Source: Clostridia bacterium (GTDB taxonomy: Bacteria; Bacillota; Clostridia; Christensenellales; UBA1242). Taken from it: a DNA stretch of 64,000 bases. The translations under genes were made by a program, and so were the position numbers. Below, piece after piece: positions 44,974-64,000 of this stretch. The number at the start of each line of letters is the position of its first letter. Position 1 is the first letter of the stretch. The stretch lies in contig JAZUAE010000014.1 in NCBI GenBank assembly GCA_045637805.1, positions 64,651 through 128,650 on the forward strand. The letters are read 5' to 3'. Under the pieces are notes generated by a model that saw only the letters and a program-made list of their open reading frames with translations, was not told the origin of the DNA and searched no databases.

Positions 44974-47900
44974 ATGTTTAAAATAAGTATTTTAAATAAA
45001 CTCATATCAATTCTTGGTGTATCAACGATTAGTGCTGATAGGACATACGATTGGTGGACTCCACTAAAGCAGGGTGCTTTTAAAGCACTTGTTACAATCT
45101 TTGATCTCTTGGTGAATGCTGCGTATTATGTTCTTAAATTTATTCTAAACATAGTCGACCTTCTTCAATATTTTGTAAAAAGACTTGTTGGATTAGATTT
45201 TTGGGGAACCGAACTGGTTAATGATCCAAATGTGAGCTACCTTGACCATGATATTGTTTTTAGGTTTATTAAAAACGATACTGTTCAAAGAGTATTCACA
45301 TATATGCTTGGCATTTTTGTTGTTTTACTTATTGTTTTTACAATTATTGCGATTATCAAAAGTGAATATTCTTATGCTACAGGCTCAGCGAAAGATAATT
45401 CAAAAAAGGGAATTGTTGGAAAATCACTCAGAGCTATTTTAATGGTAATTCTAGTTCCGATACTTTTAATAGTTGGAATCATGGCGTCTAACGCCGTACT
45501 TCAAGGCATTGTAAATGCTTTCAACTTAAATAGAGACATTACATTTGGTGGTCAAGTGTTTGTTGCTTCTTCTTATGGGGCAAACAAATACCGAAACTAT
45601 GGAAATGGTGAATATAGACTGCCAACATCAACAAGTATTGTTTTATACTATAGCACAGATGGTAGTGGGAATATTATTTCGAATACAATTAGTACGGAAT
45701 ATTCAAGAGATAAAAAATCAATAGAATTTAATACATCTGTTCCTGATGTTAACCCAATGAATTATGGAAAGAAAAAGAAAGTTACGGGCTTTTCGTTTAA
45801 AAGACCATCTTCAAATGCTGCTAATAATTCTTCAACCAAAAACAATCCTACATATTTCTGGAAAGCGTATCATGAAGGGCAATATGGTGAACAAGAACAG
45901 ACAGTTCAGTATGAGATTCTTAAATATTATTTAAAAGACATCATGCATTATACAGATGTTAAAGAATACAAAGATGTGTCATTACATGATCTAGACGGTA
46001 GTCATGAACTAATTGGTTATATTTACAATAGCTGGTTATTTAATGAGTATATGACTCAAGTTATGAGTTTTGAAGATTCAGTTGTTTCCACAAGGGTTGG
46101 CTTTACAAGTAGTTATGGTACGCGATATGATTCAGCTTTAACATATAAAAACAATCAAGTTTGGGCAGAAAGATATGATGGTGGTGAGGAAGGATTTGTT
46201 GCTCTAAGAAGTGAATACAAAGTTATGGGCGATTTTATGGACTTTATGGTAGAAAACAATCTTTCTTGCTCTATTGTTGATATAACAAATAATGAAATTG
46301 ATTGGAGTAAAGTGCCAACAGAAATCTCTAGGTATTATAACACACTCGATAATAAGATAAACCAGTTTATGGTTGAGTATGTTAATGAGGGATATGTTGT
46401 ATATACACCAAGGTGGAATAAAGAGTCTGAACTTGAAGGTTCAATTTACATTATGTGTTATAAAGATATCAACACAAAAAAATATGTACCTGTACTTGCG
46501 AACACAGTGCAAGAGGTTCAGCTTGCAACTATAAACGGAGTGGCTGCTGGCACGGATACTTACAAATTTGAATCTGATAGCCTTGGTAGTAAATATACAG
46601 GATTTATTATTGCTCGCGGTGGATTTACTGGAGAGAATAAATCATTTGCGGATGCTGATTATCCAACATATATTTCTGCAACAACAACACTGAAAAACGA
46701 AAATGGTTTAATAGCAGAAGTGAAACTTACTGATGCATACAAAGTAGATACAACATTTACGTACGCTGAATTTGATTTTATAAAAGTTATTGGTGGTGAG
46801 GGGTATTTACCAAATAGAATAGAGACAAACGCGTTTATTGAGAAAATTGAAGATGACACAGAAATTCCAAATAAAGCAAATAGCTACTATTATTACTATC
46901 AATGGAAAGATGATCGCCCTCTAACATTAAAAGATGAAATAAACAATATAAATGAAACAGTTAAAGTAGGTGTTAATGGTAGAGAAAAACCATTTAAAGA
47001 TGTGTTCTACTATGATCCTGATACGCCTGCAAATACTGCTGACGACATATCTTGGGAAGTAACAGGATATTCTTATGTGAATGAATATGGGAATAATGTT
47101 TATGGTTTTACAGCAGAAATAGATGGCTCTGTTCGCGGATTCTTACTTGAACATGACGCTGAAACAAATACTCTATCATTTATCAGATGTGATGATTTCT
47201 ATTATGTATACTGGAACGATGAAGATGGAGGATATTACTATTTATTTCAAGATGGGACTTTTCAACCAGACATTGATCCTTATACAAATGATAAAGGTGA
47301 AAAGGTTGATGTTGCCATTTTCAACTTCTATAACATGACACTTGAAGGTGTTGAAGAAGATGATACTGACGTGAAAACTGCTACATATAGCGTTGAAGGG
47401 TTTGTATACAACTCTTCGTATGTTGCCAAACTTGCAATTTACAATCCAAGTGATCTTGGTGCTGCGGACTATATTGTCGATGGAAAGAATTACTATAACA
47501 CGAATAGATTTTATGATACAGCATTAATTTTTGACAAAAAGTGCGATGGTTTCATTTATAAGATAGATTACTACAATTTCTATACTTTTAAAAATCTTAA
47601 TGGAGAGATAAAAACATACAATTATAAATCGTCAGATAATCCTAACACCATTGCTGATGAAAGAATAGAAAATGCTACACCTTTAAAATCGAAAACTGGA
47701 AGGGTTATGTTTAGCGATATTCGTCTTGAGAGATGGGAGAGTGGTTCAAATTACAAATTTCCAAAAACTATAACCTTTTCTGATCCGCATATTGTGTTCT
47801 ATCTAGATAGTTCATTAAGTGCTGAAAGATTGTACAGTGAAGGGAAAATTAGTTTAGAAAATGGAGACTATGAGGCACTACTTGAAAAAGCTGCTGAATG

Positions 47901-63300: not shown

Positions 63301-64000
63301 AACAATGTTGAAGATGAAGAATTTGTAACTAAAGCAGGAATGCAAGATGAAGAGGAAATTTTTGGTGAAGAGGAAGAAGGAAACAAGCATTTAGTTCAAT
63401 TACAAGAAGATTTAGAAAATACAAAAACAGCACAAATAATAGAAACCGCCGGTGAAAAATTTGAAAGTGGAGATATTAAAGGTGGTATAGCTACAATGGT
63501 TGGTTCTTTAGGTGCTTTAGTTAGTGAAACGCCAACAGTTCTCAAATCTGGATTTAAGGCCGTAAAAGGAATTGTTAATGATAAGCTTAAAGAAATGAAA
63601 AATGGTAAGAGTGAGCAAGCATCAGAAAAGGCTGAAATGCAGGACAAAGGCACAAAATATTATGAACTTTTAAATAATAAATTTTCTTCAGAAAAACAAA
63701 GATTATCTTTAATTCATGAAGGTCAAATAAAACCTATGTTTATTGAAGAAAATTACTTTAACCTTATAAAAGAATTAAATAATACAGAGCAAGCTCTTAA
63801 ACCTTTTAAAAATTCATATTTTATGGATAAAGACGTAAATACAATTAAAAACAAAAATTTCAATGAGACTATTAATGCAATAGAAGCTGATGTCAATGAA
63901 TCTTATAAAAAATTAACAGACAAATCACCAGAAATGGATCAAAATTATGATAAATTGACGTCTAGTTTATCTAGACTTAAAGAGTTATATAGAATAAATC
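60337..64000 (+). CDS. Giant membrane protein paralogue 3 (at least 1221 aa, 3' end beyond the window; absent from the ORF track)
   Basis: I read frame 1 by eye from ATG 60337 to base 64000 and found no stop codon. N-module TVIDFIYTFVRQLVGIS and LLIVFTIIAIVKNEY. C-module EISLFILIFAIGTVFSIILKITFGLVGRIFDIIVLIISYP. Shares ARGxFxEDGYPTAIRI with paralogue 2. Confidence 0.75.
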   Translation, partial: MLKGLNFINILSERAFTAEANAPSFFDTISMIISKFVIDLWDHLLTLVIKIVYTVLKWAMTVIDFIYTFVRQLVGISIDSSGTSFLLEDDIIFKFLSGEFFLPLMKYMLGFCFLLLIVFTIIAIVKNEYDYTVYGRSNDKKQVLVKSLQAVFLMILVPFIVVGSIIGSNALLRALTEATSVGGSGTSIGSQIYVASSYKANAYRHYAESNYKIPITYNFSEVEDKTIIAGWEADGGVEEINKVVNQYLSMPVWSRGLKAFEMHISNNYFALDYIDEITYQAYQAADASSSDIDGLMTIYEGLYDKGINTYTPEYYVMADTIEYFFGSNRTIRFVTMEQVYKTCSMAGIESGIDYDGKYYTAQVEYNYDIGGRGNTITYRHRAGATDEADGAVFVCATQEQTESGVIYYKPYIASSSSYYNGGNITVARGTFNEDGYPTAIRIRNNIVECYRENLNVPTLIDFFPTISYEKPEGTTQEIGNWITRTLFEGVTGVNPDELVPYIYFNFDLFSLFTKSTNVVTKFADGGLDIDYYFSDSDIEIENLYWIPEISLFILIFAIGTVFSIILKITFGLVGRIFDIIVLIISYPATLALFPLKGNNALKKWSTNFFSKLIEAYGVIIALNLMFLFATVLSDFKLLQPGDNANIIQQLGLFFSNHIIRILFLLVAFSLMAKIPLSINKILNGKEDKEDKEDENAIISRGEKSIQDLKNPFTWMSDLVTGKMFIDQAKKAKEFSTKSIPGGAFVATKHRKKKEEKEENEEFAKALISSPKNKSNTNNGSSSQSSGNSNMPPEIHSSTDANESATTSGDLDVSDVVSQINNNADNNEMDLEIESGKDEQNTNNEPSESDNVAKAETKRDVFILFDNRENENIEETTKHKNNTIENSDAEKSDSKKADRIEEKPLNKDKTESKENDTDKPSDKSAAENSNSKTNQDTSSTKNAADKAESFADKLEQTGEKVLEKFTNSKLGQNLLNSKLGKSIRAKFEENNVEDEEFVTKAGMQDEEEIFGEEEEGNKHLVQLQEDLENTKTAQIIETAGEKFESGDIKGGIATMVGSLGALVSETPTVLKSGFKAVKGIVNDKLKEMKNGKSEQASEKAEMQDKGTKYYELLNNKFSSEKQRLSLIHEGQIKPMFIEENYFNLIKELNNTEQALKPFKNSYFMDKDVNTIKNKNFNETINAIEADVNESYKKLTDKSPEMDQNYDKLTSSLSRLKELYRIN

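Follow-up and report, generated by a model that had tools for sequence, protein, structure and literature searches.

TraG of the F plasmid and TcpH of pCW3 are examples of 'extended VirB6' subunits of type IV secretion systems (T4SSs). A 2025 review describes this class as hydrophobic helices combined with large central or C-proximal hydrophilic domains, and states that the role of these domains is still unknown (PMC12857230). In Rickettsiales, the Rvh T4SS has the VirB6 paralogues RvhB6a-e, which are 674-1154 amino acids (aa) long (PMC2653234). In Mycoplasma agalactiae, insertions in CDS16 abolish the transfer of the integrative and conjugative element (ICE) ICEA (PMC6030558), and CDS16 has been called 'likely the VirB6-like component' (PMC12857230). 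VirB2-like pilins are stated to be absent from Gram-positive T4SSs except those of Patescibacteria (PMC12857230). Here we describe a T4SS locus found in 64,000 nucleotides (nt) of DNA from Clostridia bacterium GCA_045637805.1 (contig JAZUAE010000014.1, positions 64,651-128,650 of the forward strand; hereafter the window, in which all coordinates are given). Three of its genes encode giant proteins, P1, P2 and P3, which are likely to be insertion-expanded paralogues of the polytopic membrane subunit of mollicute-type T4SSs, co-assembling, with their ectodomains outside the cell, in a domesticated machine.

Positions 44974-64000 hold four long open reading frames (ORFs) on the plus strand, which encode P1, a VirB4-type ATPase, P2 and P3. 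P1 (44974-50562) has 1862 aa and P2 (53411-60289) has 2292 aa. P3 starts at 60337 and leaves the window; the full-length protein (P0001) has 1228 aa, the 7 codons before its stop being missing here. An earlier note on this DNA had described three tandem giant paralogues. The paralogues are indeed three and giant, but they are not strictly tandem, as the gene for the 920-aa ATPase (50618-53380) separates P1 from P2. The complete locus has eight genes, in the order surface protein, VirD4, two VirB2-like pilins, P1, VirB4, P2, P3. The parts of the three giant proteins are as follows:

44974-45648, plus strand: N-half of the membrane domain of P1 (aa 1-225, helices 1-3).
45649-48225, plus strand: inserted central region of P1 (aa 226-1084, 859 aa), probably extracellular.
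48226-48879, plus strand: C-half of the membrane domain of P1 (aa 1085-1302, helices 4-6).
48880-50562, plus strand: tail of P1 (560 aa, 18% Lys, low complexity).
53411-54094, plus strand: N-half of the membrane domain of P2 (aa 1-228; aa 49-214 match positions 2-161 of the NF045848 profile).
54095-59149, plus strand: inserted central region of P2 (aa 229-1913, 1685 aa).
59150-59815, plus strand: C-half of the membrane domain of P2 (aa 1914-2135).
59816-60289, plus strand: tail of P2 (157 aa, 27% Arg).
60337-61005, plus strand: N-half of the membrane domain of P3 (aa 1-223).
61006-61878, plus strand: central 'base' domain of P3 (aa 224-514, 291 aa), with an alpha/beta fold in the AlphaFold2 (AF2) model.
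61879-62535, plus strand: C-half of the membrane domain of P3 (aa 515-733; aa 532-688 match positions 171-318 of the NF045848 profile).
62536-64000, plus strand: tail of P3, charged and of low complexity (495 aa in the full-length protein).

The N-modules of the three proteins (the first ~220 residues) are 36, 36 and 30% identical in pairwise comparison (BLASTP with composition-based statistics, E = 5e-39, 2e-34 and 8e-27). The C-modules, a C-proximal hydrophobic block of ~220 residues, are 26, 24 and 23% identical (E = 2e-20, 1e-25 and 3e-21). Conserved N- and C-terminal membrane modules, as the earlier note had described them, are thus borne out, with E-values of 8e-27 or better for the N-modules and 2e-20 or better for the C-modules. 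Judged from these alignments, the similarity is far above what chance or composition would give.

Pfam yields no match in P1 and P3 and one sub-threshold match in P2. All three proteins match two NCBIfam families, NF045848 (MMCAP2_0566 family conjugal transfer protein, 322 positions) and NF045889 (Mbov_0396 family ICE element transmembrane protein, 306 positions). The E-values against NF045848 are 4.5e-31 for P1, 5.2e-20 for P2 and 3.4e-20 for P3. P1 scores above both curated cut-offs, with 108.3 bits for NF045848 (cut-off 90) and 71.4 bits for NF045889 (cut-off 70). P2 (72.0 and 47.4 bits) and P3 (72.6 and 40.1 bits) fall under them because their profile match is split in two.

This split is informative. 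The N-half covers positions 2-161 of the 322 positions of NF045848 and the C-half covers positions ~171-318; in P1, the best stretch of the C-half is aa 1109-1263, which corresponds to profile positions 187-315. Since the two halves cover successive parts of one profile, the N- and C-modules are the two halves of one domain of ~320 residues, that of the MMCAP2_0566/Mbov_0396 families. The earlier note had taken the C-module alone as the channel part. This is not borne out, as the N- and C-modules jointly cover a single-domain profile.

The same domain exists in uninterrupted form. In loci whose VirB4 is ~42% identical, the gene immediately preceding VirB4 encodes a protein of ~465 aa in which the N-half runs straight into the C-half. 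These compact homologues match NF045848 in one stretch (positions 9-318 of 322, E = 1e-39 to 1e-44), and they carry the NCBI name 'Mbov_0396 family ICE element transmembrane protein [Candidatus Coproplasma sp.]'. An hhalign comparison of 119 compact proteins with 171 joined N+C cores gives a probability of 100% and an E-value of 1.6e-46 over 318 contiguous columns. Judged by the envelopes of the hidden Markov model (HMM) and by the AF2 model of one compact protein, the insert enters the loop between helix 3 and helix 4. There the domain is interrupted by 291 residues in P3, 859 in P1 and 1685 in P2, so that the central regions differ by more than 1000 aa, as had been noticed before. The whole proteins have 1228-2292 aa, compared to ~300-520 contiguous aa in the known members.

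Proteins of this kind are numerous. A word-indexed search returned 21 relatives of P3; an exhaustive HMMER search returned 2524 cluster representatives (at 50% identity) with E <= 1e-3, of which 1237 had E <= 1e-30. Many family members have 2000-3900 aa, the largest having about 3900 aa. Among the 173 members that we examined, central regions reach 2014 aa and tails reach 2426 aa. The family is widespread and essentially unannotated, and in the literature we found no paper describing this system in Clostridia.

Which subunit of known T4SSs does the domain correspond to? Mbov_0396 lies directly upstream of the VirB4 gene (Mbov_0397; VirB4 is CDS17), and by gene order it is therefore taken as CDS16, which is the presumed functional counterpart of VirB6. 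P1, P2 and P3 are polytopic, with six long helices in the two AF2 models, and are encoded beside VirB4, as a VirB6-type subunit is expected to be. Polytopic, next to VirB4 and the pilins, and members of a family needed for transfer, they occupy the working place of VirB6.

Membership of the VirB6/TrbL family is not demonstrated, and a series of searches weighs against it. Pfam PF04610 has no match even at E <= 10 in P1-P3, in 13 joined cores or in 10 compact homologues. Profile searches of the PDB with the cores did not find TrwI/VirB6 or anything else relevant. The PrgH family, a set of 44 proteins many of which carry a precomputed PF04610 annotation, gives an hhalign probability of 0.1% whether it is compared with the 171-sequence core or with the compact family; this is a narrow profile (effective number of sequences, Neff, 2.7), in a comparison that did not include TcpH, ConG or Gram-negative VirB6 profiles. 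A single PrgH sequence shows no similarity in hhalign either. Foldseek searches with two AF2 models against the PDB, and with one against BFVD, give no match at E <= 1e-3, and with the compact model TrwI appears at rank 17 with a probability of 0.06 and there is no enrichment of VirB6 proteins.

The fold evidence is weakly suggestive. When the P3 model is compared with the PDB, the TrwI/VirB6 chains of the R388 stalk (7o3v, 8rt9, 8rtd) and DotA recur with the highest probabilities of the list (0.2-0.54), TrwI having E-values of at least 1.2. The top Foldseek match in BFVD is annotated as TrbL/VirB6 (E = 0.024, probability 0.85), and another TrbL-annotated protein stands lower in the list. The earlier note had proposed VirB6/TrbL/ConG homology and had named a lack of profile similarity as the result that would overturn it. 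With no PF04610 match and a PrgH probability of 0.1%, the homology is not borne out by sequence.

The BFVD search also brought up proteins filed as viral. Three large proteins (891, 1389 and 1133 aa) of the metagenomic 'Siphoviridae sp. ctHip2' are among the four best matches, one of them annotated TrbL/VirB6; the entry is possibly a mis-assigned T4SS locus in which several paralogues are enlarged. A match to Bacillus phage G gp153 is also present (probability 0.92).

We next consider on which side of the membrane the inserts lie. The AF2 model of P3 residues 1-771, built from a 25-row alignment (mean predicted local distance difference test, pLDDT, 73; predicted TM-score, pTM, 0.66), has helices at 25-74, 101-134 and 140-179, then at 551-591, 599-633 and 646-683, followed by a poorly ordered tail. 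An alpha/beta domain at 188-545 stands between the two helix triplets. The compact protein P0218 (119 rows; pLDDT 80-92 in the membrane part) is modelled with the same three-plus-three long helices and has a 55-residue loop at the insert site. In the window proteins the loop between helices 1 and 2 is acidic, and the loop between helices 2 and 3 and the segment after helix 6 are basic. With six crossings, these loop charges fit an N-terminus and a tail in the cytoplasm and an insert outside the cell.

Charge and composition in the wider family are consistent with this arrangement. Across the 173 members the central regions have 8.4% Lys and Arg versus 14.5% Asp and Glu, and the tails have 20.8% Lys and Arg. 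A family-wide count by region gives a net charge of -3.05 for the loop between helices 1 and 2; it is not crisp for the other regions because the charges sit at the helix ends. The central regions are rich in Tyr, Thr and Asn and poor in Lys and Leu, which is the composition of the signal-peptide-bearing surface protein of the locus and unlike that of the window's cytoplasmic proteins; the central region of P1, which resembles the surface protein in this way, is also acidic. In three loci (L008, L010, L019) the tail of the P2 orthologue ends in a CxxC...CxxC motif, which would fit a cytoplasmic tail. Taken together, we think it likely that the insert is outside the cell.

A placement of the central regions in the cytoplasm, which would make the proteins membrane-anchored cytoplasmic scaffolds and not surface structures, is unlikely, yet several observations speak for it. 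Hydropathy alone gives 7-8 hydrophobic segments, and CDS16 is quoted with 8 transmembrane helices (PMC12857230), a topology that would put the central region in the cytoplasm, where the cluster of four CxxC motifs in the central region of P2 would fit. Helix 4, 41 residues long, has a Lys, an Arg and an Asp conserved around its centre; folded as a hairpin, it would leave the insert on the cytoplasmic side. On the other hand, two independent AF2 models show six continuous long helices, the loop charges of the window proteins fit an external insert, and the central composition matches the secreted surface protein and not the cytoplasmic proteins of the window.

Helix 4 has a further feature. In our alignment (A1, P1 numbering), the invariant R1144 lies in the middle of the helix, P1156 further along it and W1175 just after it. 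In VirB6 proteins, too, a conserved Trp is essential (PMC2653234).

The inserts have some parts in common. The two ectodomain islands quoted in the earlier note (YYVMADxxxF and ARGxxxxxGxPTAIxI) are real and conserved across the family, where their consensus reads 'EYYVMADV' and 'ARGxFxxxGYPTAI'; for example, P1 389-447 aligns to P2 271-329 (BLASTP, E = 2e-5). P3 carries solely a base ectodomain of ~290 aa, common to all P3 orthologues (HMM M21) and partly present in P1 and P2. Its AF2 model is an alpha/beta fold with a pLDDT of 80-92 over residues 300-450, for which Foldseek finds no significant match in the PDB or BFVD. In P2 an additional insert of ~1350 aa divides the base domain in turn, into aa ~225-376 and ~1719-1901, and the same split is found in both sub-clades. 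In P1 the extra sequence is placed after the conserved islands.

The ectodomains of P1 and P2 have no match in Pfam, the PDB (phmmer) or PHROGs, and self-BLAST reveals no internal repeats in the ectodomains. Compared with the nearest relative (L004), identity is 81% for VirB4, 84% for VirD4, 60-70% for the membrane modules and 50-65% for the base domains. It drops to 6-30%, with many indels, in variable parts of the ectodomains, and the tails are unalignable. By this sequence comparison, the ectodomains and tails are the fast-evolving parts of the proteins. Between proteins that share 25-70% of their amino acids, synonymous sites have become saturated. A simple fusion of a separate adhesin is not supported as the origin of the ectodomain, as the P1 and P2 ectodomains have no similarity to the ~2500-aa surface proteins of the compact-type loci. 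We also observe a dense Cys cluster at aa 1171-1287 of P2 (56921-57271), within the putatively extracellular insert, which contains the four CxxC motifs (CKWC, CDKC, CDRC, CAAC).

The tails differ between the paralogues, as the earlier note had stated. In the full-length P1, P2 and P3 they have 560, 157 and 495 aa and a distinct composition: 18% Lys in P1, 27% Arg in P2, and an abundance of Glu, Lys, Asn and Ser in P3. In the tail of P1, [IVL][QKE]EE[PS]L occurs four times and a 57-nt tandem repeat is present at 49164-49302; the tail of P2 is encoded by 21- and 33-nt tandem repeats at 60076-60286. Neither the motif and repeat of P1 nor the Arg-rich repeat tail of P2 is conserved in the orthologues. 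The length class is kept by paralogue: the P1 tail is always the longest (560-1474 aa) and the P2 tail is always short (111-158 aa). The tails are probably disordered.

Retention of the paralogues bears on what they do together. Each related locus that extends far enough has the three genes in an unchanged order, each gene with its paralogue-specific architecture, and neither copy-number variation nor cassette-like turnover is seen among the related loci. This favours non-redundant subunits over alternative specificities. Best BLAST matches pair P1 with P1, P2 with P2 and P3 with P3 in every locus, and the identity matrix of the membrane core agrees with orthology for P1 and P2. At 25-31% identity in the membrane core, the paralogues fit the old duplication that had been suggested from the sequence. 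In a neighbour-joining tree of the membrane core, P1, P2 and P3 do not separate into orthogroups that span both sub-clades (bootstrap 16, 2 and 37 of 100). Independent triplication or gene conversion is therefore possible; an old triplication is the most economical reading.

The earlier note had suggested that the ectodomains let one machine use alternative surface specificities, the three proteins being interchangeable VirB6-adhesin fusions comparable to swappable receptor-binding modules. We consider this improbable. It would explain why the ectodomains are the fastest-evolving parts (6-30% identity where VirB4 has 81%), why their sizes differ by more than 1000 aa and why the membrane-core tree separates the paralogues poorly. 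It does not sit well with three genes retained in order in every sufficiently long related locus without cassette turnover, with an own architecture and tail-length class held by each paralogue across sub-clades, or with a P3 that retains the conserved base domain alone.

The other five genes of the locus encode the following proteins:

40018-41676, minus strand: surface protein of 552 aa with a signal peptide, an Asn/Thr/Ser/Tyr-rich domain and a C-terminal anchor followed by RRKVKVR.
41769-43739, minus strand: VirD4-type coupling protein (T4CP), matching Pfam T4SS-DNA_transf (4.8e-43) and TraG-D_C (1.2e-30) and NCBIfam conju_CD1115 (1e-80).
43839-44168, plus strand: VirB2-like pilin A, with two hydrophobic helices, matching PF18895 T4SS_pilin (2.1e-8) and NF045849 (3.7e-9).
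44269-44610, plus strand: VirB2-like pilin B, with two helices, matching PF18895 (4e-5, under the Pfam cut-off) and NF045849 (1.9e-8).
50618-53380, plus strand: VirB4-type ATPase, matching NF045975 VirB4_plasma (the Mbov_0397 family; 2.9e-182, 607.7 bits, cut-off 590) and Pfam P-loop_TraG (6.9e-23).

T4SS membrane subunits in a Gram-positive-type genome, as the earlier note had it, are thereby confirmed by VirD4, two pilin genes and VirB4, together with the encoded Spo0A, SipL-like protein and MurB. Against NF045849, the Mbov_0395 pilin-like family with a curated cut-off of 40 bits, pilin A scores just under the cut-off (36.2 bits) and pilin B under it (33.9 bits). The N-terminus of VirB4 has two hydrophobic helices at aa ~20-66 (50618-50820), and the locus has no separate VirB3/PrgI-like gene; the helices are possibly a fused VirB3-like part. 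In Pfam and NCBIfam scans, none of the eight locus genes matches a relaxase, integrase, transposase, cell-wall hydrolase or VirB8-like family. Between pilin B and P1, a G+C-rich hairpin followed by a T-run at 44626-44643 resembles a terminator, and it may allow stronger expression of the pilins than of the machine genes.

The surface protein, whose likely true start is an ATG at ~41628, belongs to no Pfam or PHROGs family. It has orthologues at the same position in L025 and L028. In L027 that position is taken by an ORF of 1033 aa with a weak local match, and in L026 by an unmatched ORF of 1010 aa. Its C-terminus resembles that of the separate surface protein of ~2500 aa that compact-type loci (L023 1375-8877; L017 32-7576) encode between VirD4 and the pilin. 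A terminator-like hairpin (40019-39985) lies by its gene. Further downstream in one compact-type locus (L023 19300-21318) we observe a protein of 672 aa with a weak match to the Ntox11 toxin domain.

The rest of the window, ~45 kb, is core chromosome (~31% G+C) with uvrC, murB, whiA, dnaE, pfkA, valS, spo0A, a SipL-like gene, holB, tatD, ksgA, tRNA-Glu, comEC and holA. Spo0A and the SipL-like protein, which has a SPOCS domain, are encoded at 17763-18521 and 19506-20963. Together with the other core genes, they indicate that the host is a walled, spore-forming member of the Clostridia. A region unrelated to the locus (10727-14687, minus strand) contains a radical SAM/SPASM peptide-maturase-like gene whose best match, of the Clo7bot type, is far under the curated cut-off. 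It adjoins a substrate-binding-protein-like gene and two further ORFs, which may together form a cluster for ribosomally synthesized and post-translationally modified peptides.

Metagenome-assembled genomes that bear the label uncultured Clostridia and stem from human gut and other gut samples carry related loci. Within the limits of each fetched stretch, the order VirD4 (minus strand), pilin, pilin, P1, VirB4, P2, P3 recurs in nine GTDB species representatives, with VirB4 53-81% identical. Four metagenome contigs show the left part of the locus, up to P1 where the contig reaches it. Upstream, comEC, holA, orf188, an M28 peptidase gene, orf112 and a racemase gene are kept in L025 and L028 (holA 44-45% identical), and comEC, holA and orf112 in L026 and L027 (holA 34-35% identical). 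Downstream of P3, as read in relatives and not in the source contig, genes for GAPDH and aminoacyl-tRNA synthetases follow in L002; in L001 the GAPDH gene is found ~4 kb past P3. In all relatives examined the locus is only a few genes from comEC-holA (34354-36908 in the window), a DNA-uptake channel operon.

Mobility genes were not found at this site. Neither the eight locus genes nor the ~36 scanned flanking ORFs of the window include a relaxase; the locus has no integrase or transposase, and the insertion site is not variable on the comEC-holA side among the relatives examined. The closest plasmid VirB4s, from Spiroplasma and Mycoplasma, are ~31% identical. A viral or phage-plasmid origin was ruled out, as tblastn of P3 against phage records gives no match and a VirB4-alignment scan of IMG/VR finds a single relative, 26% identical. 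The conserved neighbours and the lack of a close plasmid or phage relative point to a vertically inherited, chromosomally fixed T4SS and not to an ICE. A relaxase could be encoded elsewhere in the genome, which would count against this conclusion; the locus looks like a domesticated chromosomal T4SS rather than a mobile element.

It is very unlikely that the locus is the transfer module of an ICE or other mobile element, with the three proteins as ordinary channel subunits for the conjugative transfer of the element itself: mycoplasma ICEs and Spiroplasma plasmids do supply the nearest named families, the locus has a VirD4 coupling protein and CDS16 is needed for ICE transfer, but none of the eight locus genes matches relaxase, integrase or DDE transposase families, housekeeping genes lie on both flanks with the upstream order kept where holA is just 34-45% identical, and the best relatives in plasmids (VirB4, 31%) and among phages (none for P3; one at 26% in IMG/VR) are distant.

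We propose the following mechanism for a domesticated machine built on split paralogues. P1, P2 and P3 would be non-redundant subunits that assemble with one another, and with VirB4 and VirD4, into a single membrane channel. The giant inserts in the loop between helices 3 and 4 would combine with the pilins and the anchored surface protein to form the wall-spanning, cell-contacting part, and the ectodomains would thereby replace the role of the separate VirB8-like, hydrolase and adhesin proteins of other Gram-positive T4SSs. The cytoplasmic tails would dock cytoplasmic partners or the substrate, which could be DNA or protein. The machine would be a domesticated descendant of a conjugation system, with chromosomal DNA exchange, protein delivery and adhesion as candidate roles. 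The earlier interpretation was partly correct: right in kind, with a T4SS channel-type subunit, a giant external domain and a likeness to Rickettsiales, and wrong in detail.

A further step, which we regard as possible but doubtful, is that, in a clade of uncultured, spore-forming gut Clostridia, a conjugation-derived T4SS has been fixed as a chromosomal organelle for a non-conjugative, contact-dependent function, in which three giant VirB6-like subunits co-assemble and their ectodomains form, together with the pilins, a new wall-spanning and surface-exposed conduit. Such a function could be the exchange of DNA, protein or nutrients with other cells, by analogy with the essential T4SS of Patescibacteria.

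If the locus is indeed a domesticated, relaxase-less T4SS, co-opted chromosomal conjugation organelles would extend from Rickettsiales and Patescibacteria to ordinary gut Firmicutes, and the machine would offer a way to study how T4SSs of Gram-positive bacteria get through the wall. With its VirB2-like pilins, the locus is also a natural counter-example to the stated absence of such pilins, and it provides a tractable comparison series. One membrane domain occurs in three forms: compact, with ~320-520 aa, on ICEs and plasmids of Mollicutes; compact, with ~460 aa, in some gut and rumen Firmicutes; and split, with inserts of up to ~2000 aa and triplicated, in a clade of Clostridia.

The closest described relatives are CDS16 of mycoplasma ICEs and its counterpart on Spiroplasma citri pSci3. 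Here the HMM matches extend over the whole profile, and a Mbov_0395-type pilin-like gene and a Mbov_0397-type VirB4 gene are adjacent. The order [anchored adhesin] - pilin-like - Mbov_0396 - VirB4 - T4CP is shared by pSci3 and the compact-type loci. The known members are uninterrupted proteins of ~300-520 aa on ICEs and plasmids of wall-less Mollicutes. In P1-P3, by contrast, the domain is split by 291-1685 aa, followed by tails of up to 560 aa, triplicated and encoded on the chromosome of a walled, spore-forming member of the Clostridia, in a locus where no mobility genes were found.

Inserts of 291-1685 aa and tails of 157-560 aa next to five or more hydrophobic helices also answer the description of the 'extended VirB6' class. 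P1-P3 differ from that class in having central and C-terminal extensions together and in being three paralogues, and the likeness is one of description, homology not being demonstrated.

The T4SS of Patescibacteria (PMC12102498; PMC12857230) resembles the locus in its monoderm host, its relation to the Firmicutes/Tenericutes class, its chromosomal location, the lack of a relaxase nearby and its PF18895 pilins. It belongs to another phylum and no giant split subunits have been reported for it; unlike here, essentiality and an epibiotic role have been shown.

Finally, the comparison with the VirB6 paralogues of Rickettsiales made in the earlier note is a fair analogy. Like P1-P3, RvhB6a-e are several enlarged, highly diverged paralogues of a polytopic channel subunit in one chromosomal T4SS locus, with variable hydrophilic extensions, and the paralogues are conserved between species. 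RvhB6a-e belong to a Gram-negative system and have extensions that flank a recognisable PF04610/COG3704 domain, whereas P1-P3 give no PF04610 signal, carry the extension within the membrane domain, reach 2292 aa in the window (and over 3900 aa in the wider family) and belong to a monoderm cell.

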